A program made the translations under genes and the position numbers. The notes under the pieces are model-generated. The model was not told where the DNA came from and ran no database searches. It worked only from the letters and a program-made list of their open reading frames with translations. 42,275 bases of DNA from positions 1 to 42,275 of the IMG/VR virus record IMGVR_UViG_3300021182_000043; one strand, given 5' to 3'. Source of the DNA: a virus. Below are positions 1 to 42,275 of this stretch, piece by piece. Positions within the stretch are counted from its first letter, which is position 1. Every line of letters starts with the position of its first letter.

Positions 1-55
1 GATGCCGCGCTGAAAAACCTTCTTGATGCCATTGACTCGGAGAAGCCATGAGCGA
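1..55. repeat. Terminal direct repeat, copy 1 (identical to 42221..42275); the contig closes into a circle
   Basis: Bases 1-55 (gatgccgcgctgaaaaacc...gccatgagcga) recur exactly at 42221-42275. The ORF starting at 42032 reads across the junction, and its stop corresponds to window positions 48-50. Confidence 0.95.
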
Positions 56-8132: not shown

Positions 8133-8419
8133 CCACCTACCTCTACCCCCCCCCTGGTTCTACCGAAGTCCATTTTCTTGGTGTGGTTTACCGCCCGAAT
8201 GCAGATGGCTGCCTTGCGGTGCCGGACAGCGTGGCCGCCAACATGATCGGCCTCGCGGGCTGCACGCGCCCAAAGTCCGTCCCCATCGTGACCTCGGCGA
8301 AGCGTCCCACCATCGGCATCACCCCTGGGCTTGAGTATTTCGATTCCACGCTGGGCAAGCCGATCTGGAGGAACGCCGCCAATACTCAGTGGGTTGACGC
8401 GACCGGCACCACTGTTTAA
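8129..8419 (+). CDS. hypothetical protein (96 aa)
   Basis: ATGA coupling to terL. C-terminal LEYFDSTLGKPIWRNAANTQWVDATG. Function unknown. Confidence 0.6.
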   Translation: MTTYLYPPPGSTEVHFLGVVYRPNADGCLAVPDSVAANMIGLAGCTRPKSVPIVTSAKRPTIGITPGLEYFDSTLGKPIWRNAANTQWVDATGTTV

Positions 8420-8429
8420 GGAGCAGGCC

Positions 8430-10751
8430 ATGGCGAAACCGAAGCCTGAGGGCGAAGAGTTGCTTGGCAGGACGCCCAACACGCCGGATGGAGGCGTGGA
8501 CTTCAAGCCTGGGATCATCGAGCGCGTGGCTGCAGGAATCCGCTACATCAGGACTGGTGAAGCCGCGCCGTGGTTCGGCCCCAACGATCCCCTACCGCCT
8601 TCCGCGCCTGACAGCGTGAAGGGCCGCCCGTGGGACTTCCCGATGGGGGTCAACCTCCAATACACCCCCCGCGTGGACCAGGGCGATACCACGGTGGACT
8701 TCGCCACGCTGCGGCGGGTGTCTGACCCCGTGCAGGGCGGGCTGGACCAGCTCCGCCTCGCCATCGAGACCCGCAAGGATCAGATGGAAGGCCAGCGGTG
8801 GTGCTTCAAGGGCATGGACGGGAAAGATGGTGGGCCCCGCGCCCGTGTCATTGAGGCTGCGTTCCGCAGGCCTGATGTGGTGCACACCTACCGCCAATGG
8901 GCCCGCCCTATCTGGGATGACCTGCTCGTGATCGACGCCCCCGCCATCTACCTCCGCCCCATCGGTGGGAAAGATGGCCAGAAGTTCATCCCCGAGCAGG
9001 TGGATGGGGCCTCCATCAAAATCCTGATCGACCAGAATGGCCGCACTCCCCTCCCACCTGATGCAGCATTCCAGCAGGTCATCAAGGGCCTGCCCGCCGT
9101 GAACTACACGCTGGATGAGCTTCAGTATTCCCCCAGGAATCTCCGCAGCTACAGGTTCTACGGCATGAGCCCGGTGGAGCAGGTGTTGGGCATCGCCAAC
9201 ATCGCCCTGAAGCGGCAGCTCCACCTGCTGGCCTATTACACCTCTGGGACCGTGCCGGACGCCATCGTGACCCCACCGGTGGGGTGGAATCCAGACCAGA
9301 TCAAGCAGGCCCAGCAGTGGATGGACCAGCTCACAGCTCCAGGTGCCCGCCACAAGGTGCGCATCATCCCCGGCGGAGAGTTCACCCAGCTCCGCGACCC
9401 CAAACTCAAGGATGAAATGGATGACTGGCTGGCCAGGATCATCTGCTATGCCTTCAGCCTTCCCCCTGGTGCGCTGGTCAAGGACATGACCAAAGCCGCA
9501 GCCGGGACCAACGTCCAGACCTCACATGAGGAGGGCCTGGAGCCCTTCAAGCTGTGGTGGAAGGATGTGATGGATGATCTGGTCTTGCGGTGCTTTGGGG
9601 TGGATGATATCGAGTTCGCCTACGAAGAAGAGGAAATCACCGATGCTAATGTGAAAATGACCATCTGGACCGGCTATAAGAATGCTGGCGTGGTCACGGT
9701 GGATGAAGTGCGGGACCGGGCTCTCGGCCTGGAGCCCATGACGGATGAGCAGAAGGCCAGCGTTGCGCCTCCTGTGCCTTTGGTGGCCCCTGGGGGGGAG
9801 CCCGGCAGCGCCGGACCGAAGCCAGGAACCACCCAGGGGGAGGTGGATGGGTCGGCCTCCCCACTTCCCCCTGTCCCTAAAGCAGCTGCGCGGCAGGCTC
9901 ACGCAGGTGGGCTTCAAAAAAAAAAGACCAAGATACTCGCCCGCATTGACCACGACCGGCCAGCGGTAAAGAAGGCCGAGAAGGCGATCACCAAGCTATT
10001 CAGGGCCCGCTTCGCCAAGCAGCGTGCGGCCCTGGTAGCTGCCGTTAAGGCTGAGGCCCAGAAGCTCCTAAAGATGGACCAGGGAGAGCTGCTGGACCTC
10101 TGGGATTCGCTCTCGGAAGAGGGGAAGGACAAGCTCCGCAAGTCCGTGACCACGCAGCTCAAGGGGACCGCCAAGGATGGGGCCAGCCAGGGGCTCACTC
10201 AGGTCATGGACTTCGCTGGGCCGACCGAGGGCGATCTGGACGCCATGCTCTCCCAGGCCAACGAGAGGGCCGTGGCCTATGCCGAGGACAGAGGGGCCGA
10301 GCTGGTGGGCATGAAGTGGGACCACGACAGCGGGGCCTACATCGAGAACCCCAATCCAGAGTGGGCCATCGACAACACCACCAGGGACAAGATCCGCGAT
10401 CTGGTGGCCATGGCGGAGGACAAGGGCTGGTCCAATGCAGAGCTGGCTGATGCCATCCAGGCAGATACCGCCTTCAGCGACGAGAGGGCGGAAATGATCG
10501 CCCGCACAGAGACCGCCTTCGCGGACATACAGGGCAATCTGGCTGGTTGGGAGGCCTCTGGGGTAGTCGAGTCCAAAGAGTGGTCTGTCAGCCAGGACGA
10601 GGTGTGCGACGAGTGCCTAGCCTTGGATGGGAAGGTCATCGGGCTGGATGAGGACTTCCCGGATGGCGACCCCCCGCTGCACCCGAACTGCCGGTGTGAT
10701 CTTCTCCCTGGCGTCATTTCCCAAGAACAAATTGACGCTGAAACCGCCTAA
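8430..10751 (+). CDS. portal protein fused to a MuF / SPP1 gp7-like minor head protein domain (773 aa)
   Basis: AAGGAG lies upstream of ATG 8430. The N-terminal ~495 aa sit in the canonical portal position after terL. A Pro/Gly linker follows. The C terminus carries MuF-type motifs: ERAEMIARTETAFA...SVSQDEVCDECLALDGKV...PPLHPNCRCDLLP. Confidence 0.85.
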   Translation: MAKPKPEGEELLGRTPNTPDGGVDFKPGIIERVAAGIRYIRTGEAAPWFGPNDPLPPSAPDSVKGRPWDFPMGVNLQYTPRVDQGDTTVDFATLRRVSDPVQGGLDQLRLAIETRKDQMEGQRWCFKGMDGKDGGPRARVIEAAFRRPDVVHTYRQWARPIWDDLLVIDAPAIYLRPIGGKDGQKFIPEQVDGASIKILIDQNGRTPLPPDAAFQQVIKGLPAVNYTLDELQYSPRNLRSYRFYGMSPVEQVLGIANIALKRQLHLLAYYTSGTVPDAIVTPPVGWNPDQIKQAQQWMDQLTAPGARHKVRIIPGGEFTQLRDPKLKDEMDDWLARIICYAFSLPPGALVKDMTKAAAGTNVQTSHEEGLEPFKLWWKDVMDDLVLRCFGVDDIEFAYEEEEITDANVKMTIWTGYKNAGVVTVDEVRDRALGLEPMTDEQKASVAPPVPLVAPGGEPGSAGPKPGTTQGEVDGSASPLPPVPKAAARQAHAGGLQKKKTKILARIDHDRPAVKKAEKAITKLFRARFAKQRAALVAAVKAEAQKLLKMDQGELLDLWDSLSEEGKDKLRKSVTTQLKGTAKDGASQGLTQVMDFAGPTEGDLDAMLSQANERAVAYAEDRGAELVGMKWDHDSGAYIENPNPEWAIDNTTRDKIRDLVAMAEDKGWSNAELADAIQADTAFSDERAEMIARTETAFADIQGNLAGWEASGVVESKEWSVSQDEVCDECLALDGKVIGLDEDFPDGDPPLHPNCRCDLLPGVISQEQIDAETA
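9916..9925 (+). repeat. A10 homopolymer in the portal/MuF linker
   Basis: gcttcAAAAAAAAAAgacc reads as CAA AAA AAA AAG in frame. The -1 frame stops at 9947-9949 and the +1 frame at 9967-9969. Confidence 0.95.
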
Positions 10752-21459: not shown

Positions 21460-21905
21460 ACACCGAGACCGAGAAGGCACAGAGGGCCTCCGTGGTGGCT
21501 GAGGCCCTTTCTTGGGTCGGGACGCCCTACCACCACCACGCACGGATCAAGGGGGCAGGGGTAGATTGCGGGATGGTCCTGGCGGAGATTTTCGAGCGGG
21601 CGGGCGTGATGCCTGCCGTGGACCCAGGAGACTACCCGGCAGACTGGATGTGCCATAGGAGCGAGGAGAGGTTCCTGGGCATCGTGGAGACCTATGCCCA
21701 CAAGATCGAAGGCCTGCCCAAGCCTGGAGACATCGCACTGTTCCAGTGGGGCAGGTGCATCAGCCACGGGGCCATCGTGATCGAGTGGCCCCAAATCCTC
21801 CACGCCTACAAAATAGCTGGCGGTGTGGTGCTTGATGATGCAGAACAGAACAAGGACTTGGAGCCCAGGCTGGCAGGGTTCTGGAGTCCGTGGGGGGAGA
21901 GCTGA
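21456..21905 (+). CDS. NlpC/P60-family cell wall peptidase (RcGTA g14-like), 149 aa
   Basis: WVGTPYHHHARIKGAGVDCGMV holds the catalytic Cys context. GRCISHGAIVIE holds the His. ATGA coupling to the upstream gene. Confidence 0.8.
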   Translation: MNTETEKAQRASVVAEALSWVGTPYHHHARIKGAGVDCGMVLAEIFERAGVMPAVDPGDYPADWMCHRSEERFLGIVETYAHKIEGLPKPGDIALFQWGRCISHGAIVIEWPQILHAYKIAGGVVLDDAEQNKDLEPRLAGFWSPWGES

Positions 21906-23968
21906 TGGGCGGTCTATTCGGAGGCGGGAAAACCACCAGCACCACGGACCAGATGCTGGCCAACATCCAACTACAAACCAGCAGCTACGGTGGATGCCTG
22001 CCCATCATCTACGGCACCACAAGGGTAGCTTCCAATCTGATTGATTATGATGACTTCACCTCGATTCCCCACACCACCAGCCAGCAGGTTGGGAAGGGCG
22101 GCGGCGGATCTACCCAGACCAGCACCACCTACACCTACACGGCGGGGGTCATCATGGCCCTCTGTGAGGGTCCGATAGCAGGGATAAATCAGGTCTGGAG
22201 GGATAAGGACATCGGGAGCCTCGCAGGATTCGGGTTCACGCTCCTTACCGGCACCCGCCCGCAGAGTCCCTGGGCCACTTGGACCTCAAAGCACCCCGCG
22301 AAGGCCCTGGGCTATTCCGGCATGGCCCTGGTCTGCCAAGCGGCCATTGACCTCGGGACTTCAGGAACCATGAAAAATCACAGCTTTGAGGTGACTGGAT
22401 TCCTGGGGACAGAGCAGGACCCGGCAGCACTCTCGGCCTATGATGCCAAGCCCGCCTCTGTGGTCGTGGACTTTCTCACCAACGTCTATTACGGGGCGAC
22501 CTGGAGCGCAGGGAAGATCAGCGATCTTGTCACCGGAGCCGCCAGCTATGCCACCTACTGCACCGCCTGCGGCTTCGCCATCAGCCCACTTTTCGATGCC
22601 CAGAAGCCTGCAGCAGAGCACATCCAGGACATCATGGATGCCACTAATGCCGAGGCGATTTGGACCGCAGGTGCCACGGGGATGACCCTGAAGGTGGTTC
22701 CCTATGGGGACACCCCTATCACGGCGAATGGGACTACCTACACCCCAAACACCACGCCCCTCTATGATCTGACCTATGACGATTTTCTGGGCGTGGTTGG
22801 CAAGGACGGGAAGCCCACGGGGAACGATGCCATCACGGTGAACCGCAGCAGCACTCAGGATGTCAAGAATACCATCCCCATTGAATATTGGGACAGGCTA
22901 AATGCCTACAACGTGAACGTGCTTCAGGACCCGGATGCGGCCGATGTCTCGATCAACGGGGCAAAGGTGGACGGGGCCATTTCCATGCACATGATCACCA
23001 GGGCCGCCCACGCCCTGCAGATCAGCAGGATTAAGGCACAGCGCAACGTCTATGTGAGGAACACCTACACCTTCCAGATCGGGTGGAAATACCTACTGCT
23101 GGAGCCCATGGACCTCGTGACCCTCACCGACCCGAAGCTGGGGCTGGACCACAAAATAGTCCGCATCGTGAGCATCGACATCCCTGAGGAGACAAGTGAA
23201 GAAGACGGGCTCACCATCGTGGCCGAGGAGTGGCCCTTCGGGACCGGCTCCGCCACGCTCTACACCACCCAGAACAGCGGCGGGACCGTCCCCAATGTGA
23301 ACGTGGCCCCTGGAAATGCCGTGGCCCCCGTGATCTTCGAACCGCCTGCATACATGGCCGCCTCGAAGGGGCCGGAAATCTGGCTAGGCACCAGCGGCAC
23401 GCCGAATCTTTGGGGCGGCTGTGAGGTGTGGGTCAGCTCTGATGGCGGATCCAGCTACAAGATGGTGGGCAGCATCAGCCTCCCGGCGCGGTTCGGAGTC
23501 ACCACGGCCATCCTCCCCTCCGGGTCCGATCCTGACACCACCAATACCCTCGCCGTGGACCTGACCTCCAGCTACGGAACCTTGAACGGGACCGATGTGA
23601 ACGGGCGGGATGCCTTTGCTACCGCCTGTCTCGTGGAAAATGAAATCGTTTCCTTCCAGACCCCCACCCTAACGGCAGCGAATAAATACAACCTTACCAG
23701 CCTGCGGCGTGGGGCCTACGGGTCCAGCATCGGGAGCCATGCCCTCGGTGTGAAGTTCATGCGGCTGGATGATGCGGTCTTCAAGATGCCCTATGATAAG
23801 AGCCTGCAGGGGAAAACCCTCTATATCAAACTGGTGAGCTTCAATGCATGGGGTGGCGGGAAACAGGACATCAGCACCCTCACCCCCTACACCTTCGTTC
23901 CTGCAGGGGTATCCTATCCACAGCCGACATCAGTAACCCTCCAGATTGGAACTACACCATTCATCTAA
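21905..23968 (+). CDS. host-specificity / central tail tip protein (gpJ-like, RcGTA g15-like), 687 aa
   Basis: The N terminus MGGLFGGGKTTSTTDQ...LPIIYGTTRV is typical of gpJ-like proteins. Size and position fit. Confidence 0.8.
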   Translation: MGGLFGGGKTTSTTDQMLANIQLQTSSYGGCLPIIYGTTRVASNLIDYDDFTSIPHTTSQQVGKGGGGSTQTSTTYTYTAGVIMALCEGPIAGINQVWRDKDIGSLAGFGFTLLTGTRPQSPWATWTSKHPAKALGYSGMALVCQAAIDLGTSGTMKNHSFEVTGFLGTEQDPAALSAYDAKPASVVVDFLTNVYYGATWSAGKISDLVTGAASYATYCTACGFAISPLFDAQKPAAEHIQDIMDATNAEAIWTAGATGMTLKVVPYGDTPITANGTTYTPNTTPLYDLTYDDFLGVVGKDGKPTGNDAITVNRSSTQDVKNTIPIEYWDRLNAYNVNVLQDPDAADVSINGAKVDGAISMHMITRAAHALQISRIKAQRNVYVRNTYTFQIGWKYLLLEPMDLVTLTDPKLGLDHKIVRIVSIDIPEETSEEDGLTIVAEEWPFGTGSATLYTTQNSGGTVPNVNVAPGNAVAPVIFEPPAYMAASKGPEIWLGTSGTPNLWGGCEVWVSSDGGSSYKMVGSISLPARFGVTTAILPSGSDPDTTNTLAVDLTSSYGTLNGTDVNGRDAFATACLVENEIVSFQTPTLTAANKYNLTSLRRGAYGSSIGSHALGVKFMRLDDAVFKMPYDKSLQGKTLYIKLVSFNAWGGGKQDISTLTPYTFVPAGVSYPQPTSVTLQIGTTPFI

Positions 23969-23978
23969 AGGCCACCCC

Positions 23979-24260
23979 ATGCGAATGATCGACACAGGTG
24001 ACGGGCTGGACGATAACGGAGGGAGCCCCCAGAGCCTGAAAAAGAATTACCTCTATGCCACCTGGGTCTGGCCAGCCAACTTTCCAGCTCCATCTGCCTT
24101 TGAGGTTGTTTTCTGCACCGGCACGGACCCTACGGTGACCAACAACTATCTGGTGCCAATTCAAGAGGCTCTTCCGACAGACCGAGGCCTTCAGATCGCC
24201 CTGCCCATCAAAACCACCATCACCGGGGTCAATGCTTTTGTGAGAGCTGTATATGCCTAA
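23979..24260 (+). CDS. hypothetical tail-associated protein (93 aa)
   Basis: Track ORF trimmed to ATG 23979, after the upstream stop at 23966-23968. Confidence 0.5.
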   Translation: MRMIDTGDGLDDNGGSPQSLKKNYLYATWVWPANFPAPSAFEVVFCTGTDPTVTNNYLVPIQEALPTDRGLQIALPIKTTITGVNAFVRAVYA

Positions 24261-26679
24261 CGGACCATGGACAGGGACATCATCTGGAGGATCAACTGGT
24301 GCGCCCTCGGGCACCCCTCTGGCCCCGAGTGCTGTAGTGGCCCAGCAGAACTCCGCGTCCTACATGACCAATCTTAACAAGATCAATCTCATAAATGACT
24401 GGAACCAGGAGGCCAACACCAAGACCGCCCTTGACGCCGCAGCGAGCGCAGCCGGGGTGAGTTCCACAGCCTATGACAACGCGGTGCTGAACCTGTCTAC
24501 CCAGTTGATCGTTGCTGGCGCTCCTTCGAACTGGGCTTCTATCTGGCCTGATGGGACGACCAGTGGTCCATGGACGAATGTGATGATGAGCCTTGCGGCT
24601 CTGTGGGCGACCATCGCGACGGCTCGGGCGAACCTAGTGAATGGTATTAAGGCGGCGGGTGATGCAGCGACATACTCGACGGCGATCTCGGCGGCAGCCA
24701 CCGATGCGACAACCAAGGCCCTCGCCTCAACCCTTGCCTCTCAGCTTCATCAAGTCGCCTGGGCCTCCTCCGCACTCCCTGGGCTCCCGAATGGGTCCTA
24801 CCCGGCGGGATATCTCGCCCAGACCACGGACAATCGGAAGTTCCAGGTCAACTCAGGCGGAACGGCGTGGGGCGAGATCCTTCAGGGGGCTGTCGGGATC
24901 TTCGGTCAACTCGTCGCGGCCCAGCTTACCGTCGCCAACTTCGACAATCTGATTCCAAACCCTGGAGGTCAAATTACATCTCCGCCAGTGGGAAGTTGGG
25001 AGGCCTCCGCCCTAATCAACTGGGGGGCACTCTACCCAGCCATTATCGGAACAGTTCTAACCCCTACAGGTTATGGCCGTGTAATCGACGGAAACACCTA
25101 TGCCCGAATCCAACAAATCACATGTAACCCGGGCGATGTGTTCTACGCTCAATGCCAATGCGCAAATTTAGCAACAGGAGCCGGAAGTCGCCTTCTCGGC
25201 CTTAGCTTCTTTAATGCCGCAGGGGGTAGCGTTGGCGACTATTATTCGACTCAACCCGTAAGCACATATTCATTTACGAGCCCACAAACCCTCTCTATCA
25301 GGCAAGCCGCGCCCGCTGGGTCCGCCTATGTGATGCCCTTCATTCAATCGATAGGATGGGCAGGTTCAAGCGCGGCGATGTTTAACAACTTCTATATGCG
25401 CCGATGTATGGACGCCTCGGTCGTTGTCGATGGATGCTTAACGGCCCAGCAAGCCAACGTCAACATGGTGATGACGTCCAACTTCGCCACGGATGCAGGG
25501 AACACATCCGCGAACCTAACCGGAACTTCCACCATTCCCAGCGGCAATCCCACGGCTGGATTCTGGGCCGGAGTAGGGACAAATAACCCGATCCTTGTAG
25601 GCCCTGGCGGCATGCTTGTGGGCATCCCGATCTATGGGGGCAGCTACACCAGCCTAGCGGTGGATGCCGCGGGTGTCATGGCCTACAGCGCAATCAGGAC
25701 CAATTATTCAGCCTCTAGTCCGCCCCAATATTCACGCTTCTGGTACGGCGGAAATGTTGATCAATCCACCATCGGAGGGGCTCCGAGTATAAACAGGCTC
25801 ACCGTCACGCCCACCGTTTATGACACTTCCAACCATATCGTCTGGATGGATTTGGCCATCGCCCCTTCTGCTAAAAGCGACAATCTCGACGCGATGCAAT
25901 ATGCCACTATCCAGTTCTACAGGCAGAGCGCAGCTGGAACCACGGGCACGCTTACCTCTGTCGGGCCACTCTTCAAGGTTCCCCTTGCAGATCGGCTCTA
26001 CAAGACACCAGGAACAGATGGAGATGCCGGGAATGTCTCCACCATTACAGCTTCAGCGGCGCACAGTGGTTTCAATGGTGGCGTTCCGGCCTGCATCGTC
26101 ACCCTCTATAACTCCTTTGGGCCTTCGGCGGGAGCCTGTTTCTATGCGGCATCTGGATGGTCGGCAGGAACATCACTCACCAACAATGGCGCTTCCTTCC
26201 CGTCCGGGTTGACTGGAGGAGGGAGCGGAGGTGGCGGGGGTGGTGGGGGCGGCCTAGGGTGTGTCCCAGCTGGCACGCCTATCCTCATGGCCAACGGACT
26301 GTCTATCCCCGTCGAGTGGATAACTGAAGGTATGGAGGTCGCCACTTACGACGACCTCACCCTGGAACCTGTCAGTGCGAAGGTGGCCAAGGTCTACCGC
26401 TACGAAAAACGCGACCTTTGGCGCATCACCACGAGCATGGGCTCGCTGGTGTGCAGCCATGACCACCGGATCTTCAACGGGACCAACTGGCCTCCTGTAC
26501 GGCAGTTCAAGGCGGGAGACCGCACCCTATGGCACAAGGACGGCAGGCTCGAAAGTGTCGAGGTCCTGTCCTGCGAACCAACCGGAGATTCGAAAGACGT
26601 CTACCACATGACGCTGACTCACGGTCACGTCTATATCGCGGGTTGGATCGCAGCCCACAACATGTATAAACCACCCTAG
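24253..26679 (+). CDS. tail fibre protein (808 aa): Ala-rich N-terminal shaft, jelly-roll/CBM-like middle, poly-Gly linker, C-terminal Hint domain
   Basis: It sits after the host-specificity gene. The Ala/Ser/Thr-rich helical N terminus resembles fibre shafts. The C-terminal 139 aa carry intein/Hint blocks (see the sub-feature). Confidence 0.8.
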   Translation: MPNGPWTGTSSGGSTGAPSGTPLAPSAVVAQQNSASYMTNLNKINLINDWNQEANTKTALDAAASAAGVSSTAYDNAVLNLSTQLIVAGAPSNWASIWPDGTTSGPWTNVMMSLAALWATIATARANLVNGIKAAGDAATYSTAISAAATDATTKALASTLASQLHQVAWASSALPGLPNGSYPAGYLAQTTDNRKFQVNSGGTAWGEILQGAVGIFGQLVAAQLTVANFDNLIPNPGGQITSPPVGSWEASALINWGALYPAIIGTVLTPTGYGRVIDGNTYARIQQITCNPGDVFYAQCQCANLATGAGSRLLGLSFFNAAGGSVGDYYSTQPVSTYSFTSPQTLSIRQAAPAGSAYVMPFIQSIGWAGSSAAMFNNFYMRRCMDASVVVDGCLTAQQANVNMVMTSNFATDAGNTSANLTGTSTIPSGNPTAGFWAGVGTNNPILVGPGGMLVGIPIYGGSYTSLAVDAAGVMAYSAIRTNYSASSPPQYSRFWYGGNVDQSTIGGAPSINRLTVTPTVYDTSNHIVWMDLAIAPSAKSDNLDAMQYATIQFYRQSAAGTTGTLTSVGPLFKVPLADRLYKTPGTDGDAGNVSTITASAAHSGFNGGVPACIVTLYNSFGPSAGACFYAASGWSAGTSLTNNGASFPSGLTGGGSGGGGGGGGGLGCVPAGTPILMANGLSIPVEWITEGMEVATYDDLTLEPVSAKVAKVYRYEKRDLWRITTSMGSLVCSHDHRIFNGTNWPPVRQFKAGDRTLWHKDGRLESVEVLSCEPTGDSKDVYHMTLTHGHVYIAGWIAAHNMYKPP
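26260..26661 (+). other. Hint (intein/Hedgehog-type) autoprocessing domain, residues 670-803 of the fibre
   Basis: Block A is C-VPAGTPILMANG, starting at Cys670. Block B is LVCSHDHRIF (S-x-x-H). The terminal blocks are DVYHMTLTHGHVYIAGWIAAHN, ending in His-Asn. The +1 residue is Met, and only MYKPP follows. Confidence 0.8.
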
Positions 26680-26685
26680 GAGGCC

Positions 26686-27117
26686 ATGATGTCTACCGTC
26701 ACACCCGCCACCCGCATCAGCGAACCCGTGTACCAGTCTTTCCAGTGGTACCGCCGTACCAACGTCCAGAATGGAGCCCTGCTCCCAAGCTTCACCATGG
26801 TCCTGGCTTCACAGAATCTGGACGTCTTGGGAGACGCCAACGGCAATCCAGTTCAGATTCTCAACCTCGGAACCGTAGGATGGAATGAGAACCTGGAGGG
26901 TGATGCCCAGATTGCCACCCTCTTTGGCGAGGAGGTCACGCGGGCAGACGGGACCAAGCTCACAGTGAATGCCCTGCTGGACTCCATCCTCATGGCCCGT
27001 GCGACCGCTCAGGCCGCAGCTCAGATCACATCGGCTCAGGCGGCCCAGGCCTTATCGGCGGCCCAGGCTGCGTTAATGGCCAAGCTCCCCCAGCCTCCAA
27101 TCCCTGTGATGGATTGA
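26686..27117 (+). CDS. hypothetical protein (143 aa), possibly fibre-associated
   Basis: AGGAGG Shine-Dalgarno upstream. Ala/Gln-rich helical C terminus. Confidence 0.6.
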   Translation: MMSTVTPATRISEPVYQSFQWYRRTNVQNGALLPSFTMVLASQNLDVLGDANGNPVQILNLGTVGWNENLEGDAQIATLFGEEVTRADGTKLTVNALLDSILMARATAQAAAQITSAQAAQALSAAQAALMAKLPQPPIPVMD

Positions 27118-42035: not shown

Positions 42036-42271
42036 TCTACCACCTAACATTCAACCAGGCCGCGGCCTCGCGCCGATCCTGTCCATCTGGAGGAACCATG
42101 CCAGCCCCCGAAATTATCAAACTCGCCCGGCGTCTCCAATCCGTTGCTTACCAGCACGGCGGGGTCGATCAGGAGGACCGCTGGAGCGACAAGAAATATA
42201 GAGACGCCGCTGACGCCTCCGATGCCGCGCTGAAAAACCTTCTTGATGCCATTGACTCGGAGAAGCCATGA
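42032..42271 (+). CDS. hypothetical protein (79 aa; alternative start ATG 42098 with a strong GGAGG)
   Basis: ATGA coupling at 42032. Its last 51 nt lie in the terminal repeat, so its 3' end is also seen at window positions 1-50. Confidence 0.5.
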   Translation: MIYHLTFNQAAASRRSCPSGGTMPAPEIIKLARRLQSVAYQHGGVDQEDRWSDKKYRDAADASDAALKNLLDAIDSEKP

Positions 42272-42275
42272 GCGA
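42221..42275. repeat. Terminal direct repeat, copy 2 (identical to 1..55)
   Basis: Exact 55-nt identity with the window start. Confidence 0.95.

Follow-up and report, generated by a model that had tools for sequence, protein, structure and literature searches.

The window analysed here is the whole of IMG/VR virus record IMGVR_UViG_3300021182_000043 (42,275 nucleotides), and our subject is its tail-fibre gene. The C terminus of the encoded protein of 808 amino acids (aa) is a complete Hint (intein/Hedgehog-type) domain with the full set of catalytic residues for both junctions. This Hint module, which stands behind a poly-glycine run, may cut itself off, or it may covalently couple the fibre tip to another molecule. 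The features listed below refer to two alignments: A2, an alignment and profile of 14 C termini of the family, and A5, which holds 31 proteins ending in what we call a terminal cassette (a Hint with no more than 15 residues past its His-Asn). Structures were predicted with AlphaFold2 (AF2).

24253..26679 (stop codon included), + strand: tail-fibre gene, 808 aa, from the open reading frame (ORF) list with an ATG start; N-terminal anchor common to 31 homologues
24331..24630 (bounds approximate), + strand: conserved N-terminal anchor, about aa 27-126 (QQNSASYMTN..AGAPSNWA..WPDGTTSGPW), present in all 31 homologues regardless of C terminus
25420..26211, + strand: distal tip domain, aa 390-653, from alignment A4
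26212..26259, + strand: Gly-rich linker TGGGSGGGGGGGGGLG, aa 654-669, disordered in both AF2 models
26260..26661, + strand: Hint (intein/BIL-like, where BIL stands for bacterial intein-like) domain, Cys670-Asn803, 134 aa, from the family profile, AF2 and Foldseek
26260..26262, + strand: Cys670 codon TGT, the block-A nucleophile, invariant in A2 and A5; aligns with position 1 of TIGR01445 intein_Nterm
26455..26466, + strand: block B, S735-H-D-H738 (AGC CAT GAC CAC), the T-x-x-H equivalent; aligns with CTHNH of Prp8 inteins
26656..26661, + strand: block G, His802-Asn803 (CAC AAC), invariant in A2 and A5; aligns with the terminal HN of the RadA intein
26662..26676, + strand: C-terminal tail MYKPP, with Met804 at +1 and Lys806 within it, read from the DNA
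26677-26679, + strand: fibre stop TAG, read from the DNA

An earlier note on this DNA, made from the letters alone, had proposed a Hint domain at the fibre end, and the residues that it cited are all in place in the ORF and the DNA: the Gly run at 654-669, Cys670, S735-x-x-H738, His802-Asn803 and MYKPP. The Gly-rich run begins with T654, whose codon is at 26212, and the residues directly before Cys670 read SFPSGLTGGGSGGGGGGGGGLG, with Gly669 as the predicted scissile (-1) residue. Inside the distal tip domain, a beta-sandwich is predicted at about aa 517-651 (model residues 128-262), where the AF2 predicted local distance difference test (pLDDT) score is 74-93. The Joint Genome Institute (JGI) gene call for this fibre (P0001) gives 780 aa, but we prefer the 808-aa start because the homologues P0003 and P0004 also open with MPN(S/G)PW. 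At the other end, we regard the stop as genuine, given that the next gene has its own AGGAGG ribosome-binding site and ATG within 9 nt past it, and that the Hint-bearing homologues in every case terminate 3-15 residues past His-Asn. Read-through into the downstream gene, which would provide a real C-extein, is ruled out by the conserved stop together with the ribosome-binding site of that gene.

Scans with the single fibre sequence were below threshold or empty, and therefore the Hint assignment rests on the family profile and on the fold. Vint and Hint_2 matched the single sequence weakly, a PHROGs scan gave no above-threshold Hint or intein assignment, and phmmer against the PDB reached a RadA intein at E 3e-4 with the His-Asn ends aligned. 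With the 14-sequence A2 profile, solved Hint domains in the PDB were matched at E 1e-13 to 1e-8. The matches include the pre-toxin HINT of UmbC (8w20, a Streptomyces umbrella toxin; PMC11062931) at 1e-13, Tetrahymena BIL2 at 3e-12, the DnaX mini-intein at 6e-12 and a C. thermocellum BIL (PDB 2LWY) at 9e-11, followed by the DnaB and RecA mini-inteins.

The AF2 model of the Hint, built on A2, has a pLDDT of 87.7 and a predicted template modelling score (pTM) of 0.82, with the Gly run and the last three residues disordered. Foldseek matched this model at E 7e-10, which, like the 1e-13 of the profile, is far from what chance would give, and 64 PDB matches fall at E<=1e-3. The PDB matches listed are all inteins, BILs or Hedgehog, with top template modelling (TM) scores of 0.74-0.82, among them the Ssp DnaB mini-intein (0.82/0.87, root mean square deviation (rmsd) 1.6 A), BIL2 (0.78), the C. 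thermocellum BIL (0.74) and Hedgehog HhC (0.79; PDB 1AT0). Matches in BFVD are mostly inteins, and a few are titled 'Hint domain containing protein [uncultured Caudovirales phage]' and are known to us by that title. Profile matches and predicted fold thus uphold the proposal that a complete Hint domain closes the fibre behind its poly-Gly run. No second Hint was found in the window when its six-frame translation was scanned with the family profile.

Cys1, the block-B His738 and the terminal His-Asn are invariant in both A2 (n=14) and A5 (n=31), at only 19-56% identity, and the complete list of A5 invariants consists of Cys1, a Gly, the block-B His-Arg, a Val and His-Asn. Strict conservation of the catalytic set amid such high divergence suggests that this set is under selection.

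Judged from its sequence, this module belongs to a cassette that recurs at the ends of phage tail-tip proteins and is composed of poly-Gly, Cys, a Hint of 117-143 aa, His-Asn and a short tail of 3-15 aa that contains Lys. A profile search of 1.84 billion representative proteins returned 28,550 Hint-like proteins at E<=1e-3, which represent the whole superfamily, and 82 at E<=1e-30. Our survey covers the best 150 matches of this search plus the homologues found earlier, and it yielded 65 terminal cassettes on tail-tip and other proteins. Note that the cassette counts are drawn from related sequences (50%-identity representatives) and are not counts of independent events.

The flanks of these 65 cassettes carry a signature. 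The ten upstream positions (-10 to -1) contain a median of 7 Gly, and 40 of the 65 cassettes have Gly at -1. On the downstream side, M (15), V (13), I (12), K (7), A (7) and L (4) account for most of the +1 residues, and C, S or T stands there in only two cassettes. In 58 of the 65, at least one of positions +1 to +3 is Lys, whereas none has Arg without Lys, and at least 90% of A5 (n=31) have Lys at +2. MYKPP, to which the earlier note assigned no role, therefore belongs to a conserved signature. Internal Hints of the same subfamily have Lys at +1 in 146 of 243 cases and are arranged as tandem arrays joined by HN-K-G(1-5)-C. Since these internal copies keep both Lys and Gly linkers, the Gly run and the Lys travel with the Hint.

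Many of the carriers are metagenomic phage tail-tip proteins, namely fibres, gpJ-like proteins and one gpI-like protein. In the 31 A5 proteins, the N-terminal parts match PHROG families of tail, host-specificity, tail-fibre and minor-tail proteins, with central tail fibre J (phrog_31) at 2e-238, and their Pfam matches include Phage-tail_3, FNIII-A_GpJ, PA14 and He_PIG; PF07591 is matched weakly by 4 of the 31. Additional Hint-ended fibres of like architecture are present in IMG/VR, and a scan of genome contigs gave only two loci. Myxococcus eversor AB053B (NZ_JAAIXY010000024) has two cassettes in one lambda-like tail-tip cluster, at 50.5-67.5 kb of this contig: its gpI-like protein ends ...GGQGPVGGG-C...SHN-TKNEDPERPHDEAP, and its fibre ends ...GGGGGGSDGGGY-C...SHN-AKPRE. 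The gene for this gpI-like protein (L008 3243-4319), whose N terminus we take, by eye, to resemble lambda tail-assembly protein I, lies upstream of a gpJ-like gene and of the Hint-ended fibre.

A tblastn search with the fibre and three Hint variants against 50,697 GenBank phage records revealed no cassette, only true inteins in terminases and other enzymes. A Hint-only query in the protein homologue search returned nothing despite known relatives, apparently owing to a word-index limit, and a profile search with the tip domain returned five proteins. In the earlier note, a Hint domain is not known in such a fibre role; this agrees with the literature searched, which contains no description of a Hint domain on a tail fibre, the key BIL primary papers being outside that search.

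Two further sets of proteins were observed in the survey. Four short proteins of 206-256 aa that are not fibres (P0101, P0162, P0114 and P0126) also end in the poly-Gly/Hint/Lys cassette; P0126 and P0114 resemble fragments of the tip domain, and P0101 and P0162 have unrelated N-terminal parts. Nine proteins (P0037, P0038, P0044, P0049, P0050, P0054, P0057, P0152 and P0083) contain 2-9 Hints of the same subfamily in tandem, with linkers of the form HN-K-G(1-5)-C, and the N terminus of P0083 is TadE-like.

Fibres of this family are built from swappable modules: the 31 homologues have the N-terminal anchor in common, and their middles and C termini differ. In the Hint-bearing group (the window fibre, P0002-9, P0013, P0015 and P0017), the protein ends in the tip domain (RFWYGGN..DNLDAMQYA..DRLY..LYN.FGPSA), a Gly-rich run, Cys, the Hint, [AS]HN, a hydrophobic residue and Lys. 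P0025 and P0026 (L010 8001-10106) have a different distal module and a shorter Hint (117 aa), and end HN-VQPVC and HN-AVPVC, respectively, so that their tails are without Lys and their very last residue is Cys. Other fibre homologues have unrelated C termini and no Hint.

Three lineages that have the same tip domain and no Hint provide natural controls. These end ...GGG-KVLDPII (P0011/P0012, L013 9100-9201), ...G13-IRVN (L019) and ...G11-RGYYTP (L020), and thus all stop 4-7 residues past the Gly run; the tip of L020 is close to that of the Hint-bearing P0015/L021. No Hint was found in any frame of the flanking 3-6 kb at the three lineages. P0010 was left out of this evidence because its poly-Gly end lies 30 nt from the contig end. 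Since Hint-less natural fibres exist, a fibre that ends just past the Gly run is a viable state. When loci were collected by a tip-only search pattern, the Hint was present in seven of nine, or in five of seven after removal of near-duplicates.

Given these characteristics, we compared the fibre Hint with known Hint systems. Type-A BILs, as described in the review PMC4031507, have His-Asn and no +1 nucleophile and are cut at both ends, with cleavage products dominating; ligation can occur by aminolysis, in which the amine released on Asn cyclisation reacts with the N-terminal thioester. The fibre Hint resembles the type-A BIL of C. thermocellum in its Hint fold, Cys1, terminal His-Asn and lack of a +1 nucleophile, and it also lies in a hypervariable, surface-exposed protein with swappable middle and C-terminal modules. 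Type-A BIL domains reportedly are located in the variable region of a secreted or surface protein, an observation that is ascribed to Amitai in 2003. By sequence, therefore, the fibre Hint has each of the type-A BIL attributes that we looked for, namely the terminal His-Asn, the missing +1 nucleophile and the variable surface-protein region. It differs from type-A BILs in being essentially C-terminal (3-15 residues follow), in the Gly run before it, in the conserved Lys after it and in its phage tail-tip carrier. Note that the family profile matches BILs and mini-inteins with nearly the same E-values.

The likeness to BIL2 of Tetrahymena thermophila BUBL (PDB 6TMM/6Y75) extends to the Gly-Cys N junction, the HN-Met C junction and the absence of a +1 nucleophile. 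PMC8616854 reports a BIL2 thioester that is resolved by a Lys side chain to form an isopeptide, with the N-flank loadable on several substrates, and this Lys parallels the conserved Lys of the phage cassette. However, BIL2 lies between two ubiquitin-like domains in a eukaryote, whereas the N-flank of the fibre Hint is the fibre tip domain and its C-flank is a five-residue peptide, and the phage members are known from sequence.

The best profile match is to PT-HINT (PF07591, UmbC 8W20), and there too the Hint, a bacterial one, is part of a filamentous surface protein that is long and polymorphic. A PT-HINT is directly followed by a C-terminal toxin domain and is predicted to set it free (PMC3482391), whereas nothing but MYKPP follows the fibre Hint; a Pfam scan gave no PF07591 match for the window fibre itself. 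Canonical mini-inteins (DnaB, RecA, DnaX, gp41-1) are alike in size, in blocks A, B, F and G, and in fold (TM up to 0.82, rmsd 1.6). Unlike these, the fibre Hint has Met804 at +1, where C, S or T almost never occurs in the family, occupies no conserved site of an essential enzyme and has no real C-extein beyond its five residues. Hedgehog/Hog also has a C-terminal Hint with a Gly-Cys scissile bond and passes its thioester to a nucleophile other than water. However, the fibre Hint has no sterol-recognition region after it, and the conserved terminal His-Asn is not a Hog feature.

On the basis of these comparisons, we consider it probable that the fibre Hint, which together with its five-residue tail makes up the last 139 residues, is a type-A BIL-like autoprocessing domain that removes itself, where self-removal is meant in general and hydrolysis and ligation are not ranked. 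The Gly run would act as a flexible tether between the Hint and the distal tip domain, and its disorder in both AF2 models is easier to understand if the Hint is detachable than if it is built into the tip. After folding, Cys670 would attack the carbonyl of Gly669, with the N-S acyl shift aided by His738, to give a Gly669 thioester, and cyclisation of Asn803, aided by His802, would cut off MYKPP. The thioester would be resolved by water or by the amine of the released tail. The Hint would be lost on either route, and the mature fibre would have a floppy poly-Gly-COOH end or a poly-Gly end joined to MYKPP. The earlier note did not expect splicing, given the Met at +1. The residue is Met, but the conclusion is too strong, in that type-A BILs can ligate without a +1 nucleophile (PMC4031507) and BIL2 is reported to splice onto a Lys side chain, giving an isopeptide (PMC8616854).

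Several points weigh against this reading. The single sequence scores 21.8 bits against a cut-off of 35.8 for Pfam Intein_splicing and 21.5 bits against 24.5 for NCBIfam TIGR01445 intein_Nterm, and the intein block-F Asp is replaced by His in the fibre Hint (VYHM) and is variable across the family. We infer the activity of the Hint from conservation alone, and self-removal by itself offers the phage no evident benefit. We also argue that the invariant Asn and the Lys-not-Arg rule point to selection for more than simple hydrolysis, because Hedgehog-like self-cutting needs neither an invariant Asn nor a conserved tail Lys.

This last consideration bears on a different proposal, that the Hint is a conjugation device in which the Gly669 thioester is captured by a lysine amine to form an isopeptide, as in the conjugation by Tetrahymena BIL2 that is independent of E1, E2 and E3. 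The acceptor could be Lys806 (a branched 'lysine splice'), a Lys on a neighbouring fibre chain or a different virion protein, or a host-surface amine. The earlier note had speculated that the thioester passes to a nucleophile, and such a transfer, although speculation for this fibre, has a real precedent: BIL2 is among the closest solved relatives, it has analogous flanks in the profile alignment (Gly-Cys at the N junction and HN-M at the C junction), and PMC8616854 reports an isopeptide between a Lys epsilon-amine and a C terminus, with the N-flank loaded on several substrates. The prevalence of Lys at +1 to +3, with no Arg-only case, and at +2 in A5, also favours capture by lysine, in that a residue which is K and never R more often has a chemical function than a charge-based one. 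Furthermore, a partner would be within reach of a thioester carried on the long, flexible Gly arm.

Nevertheless, we regard conjugation as unlikely. The tip-domain alignments contain no invariant Lys that might be a conserved acceptor within the fibre, and a conserved downstream partner gene was not found. The tails of P0025 and P0026 (VQPVC and AVPVC) are without Lys, and the tail Lys could alternatively serve Asn cyclisation, solubility or strand pairing. Persistence of a thioester on the virion until the host is met is also improbable, unless an amide-thioester equilibrium keeps it latent.

The presence/absence polymorphism among related fibres raises the question of whether the Hint is a selfish or neutral passenger, a degenerate mini-intein that has lost its homing endonuclease and +1 nucleophile, need do no more than clear itself from the fibre end and brings the phage no benefit. 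Its mini-intein size and intein-like blocks agree with this idea, as does the tail KVLDPII of the Hint-less P0011, which, in a single case, looks like an empty-site counterpart of the cassette tail VKILDPD in P0076. However, a nonsense mutation or deletion behind the Gly run would remove a passenger harmlessly, yet seven of the nine tip-pattern loci keep the Hint, and its catalytic residues are invariant despite the divergence noted above. Moreover, inteins normally occupy conserved sites of essential enzymes rather than hypervariable fibre ends, and the module recurs with its own Gly and Lys flanks on unrelated tail-tip proteins. We therefore judge a passenger to be decidedly improbable.

C-terminal intramolecular chaperones of the S74 type, which cut themselves off, are known on phage fibres and spikes. 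Like the Peptidase S74 chaperone, the fibre Hint lies at the C terminus of a phage receptor-binding protein and is predicted to remove itself, and it might accordingly be an assembly aid that brings the three chains into register or masks the tip before cutting itself off, as in endosialidases and the T5 L-shaped fibre. Its position and predicted fate match those chaperones, and the cassette is restricted to oligomeric tail-tip proteins, apart from the small non-fibre proteins P0101 and P0162, which count against an assembly role. The chemistry differs, with a Hint fold, Cys thioester and Asn cyclisation in place of a Ser-Lys dyad, and a Pfam scan of the fibre gave no Peptidase_S74 match at E<=1. 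Known intramolecular chaperones pack directly on the fibre end, whereas the disordered Gly tether of 10-15 residues makes the module floppy and uncouples it from the tip fold; Hint domains are monomeric in the matching solved structures, and the Hint-less relatives carry the same tip domain. We find an assembly aid very hard to reconcile with these observations. A retained, non-catalytic Hint that serves the virion as a structural or binding module is the least credible proposal, in that some Hint-like domains elsewhere are inactive but here exactly the residues for both cleavages are conserved despite high divergence, and the tether is flexible.

The novelty lies in where the Hint is found and in its fixed arrangement, a poly-Gly/Hint/Lys cassette at the end of phage tail-tip proteins that appears to be undescribed. 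Receptor-binding proteins set phage host range, and their C-terminal ends are the site of folding aids and receptor contacts. A Hint/BIL domain at the fibre end would add to the S74 chaperone a second class of self-processing module on phage fibres, with a chemistry of its own. The cassette is abundant in metagenomic phages and absent from the GenBank phage records and literature searched, and thus has so far been without experimental attention; Myxococcus eversor AB053B, which is cultured and has two cassette-bearing tail genes, is a possible experimental system. Should an amine instead of water receive the thioester, a virion protein would be carrying out covalent ligation, and the module would be a natural, compact generator of C-terminal Gly-thioesters of possible use in protein engineering. 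If conjugation proves correct, the fibre end would be 'ubiquitinated' onto its target in the manner of BIL2 by an energy-free device built into the tail tip, and covalent chemistry would be part of tail assembly or of irreversible adsorption.

Three genes adjoin the fibre gene.

21890..23968, + strand: tip-attachment protein (gpJ / RcGTA g15-like), directly 5' of the fibre; Pfam Phage-tail_3 1e-21, Rcc01698_C 2e-14, phrog_1101 4e-120
23946..24260, + strand: 104-aa ORF that overlaps the fibre start by 8 nt, from the ORF list
26686..27117, + strand: 143-aa gene downstream of the fibre with its own ribosome-binding site, from the ORF list and the DNA

In the window and at the homologue loci, the fibre gene is always directly downstream of the gpJ/Rcc01698-like tip protein. 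The stop codon TAA of the 104-aa ORF overlaps the fibre ATG region (GTCTATGCCTAA). P0005, P0006, P0015 and the Myxococcus fibre carry the domain of this ORF fused in-frame at their N termini, and in P0003, P0004 and P0007 it is separate, an arrangement that is either a gene fission or fusion, or translational coupling, at the attachment end of the fibre. Past the tip protein, the order is fibre, 143-aa gene, a small membrane-like ORF and endolysin, with a matching order around homologues. A conserved downstream partner protein was considered and ruled out, since comparison of downstream neighbours found the 143-aa gene conserved in close relatives only, and hence it is no general partner of the cassette.

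The window also encodes terminase, a portal-MuF fusion, protease, capsid and tape measure. The portal ORF (806 aa, 8331-10751) appears to be this fusion, in that its last ~120 residues (about 680-800) match MuF-like head-morphogenesis and minor-head-protein families. The tail tip is RcGTA-like, with phrog_2913, a phrog_778 tail-assembly protein and a minor tail protein, and then the protein with Phage-tail_3 and Rcc01698_C. The nearest cultured relatives are the Brevundimonas phages Polewnik and Strzyga (45% in the capsid, 37% in the tip protein), in neither of which tblastn detected a homologue of the fibre. The first 55 bases of the window (1-55) are repeated exactly at 42221-42275, and because of this 55-bp terminal direct repeat the 42.3-kb contig is probably a complete, circularly assembled phage genome.

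GC at third codon positions lies between 0.72 and 0.82 for the genes of head, tail and lysis, falls to 0.51-0.69 across the fibre body, with a minimum at about 24850-25100 inside the fibre gene, and is back at 0.73 in the Hint. By this measure, the middle and tip modules of the fibre look compositionally foreign, and the Hint looks resident.

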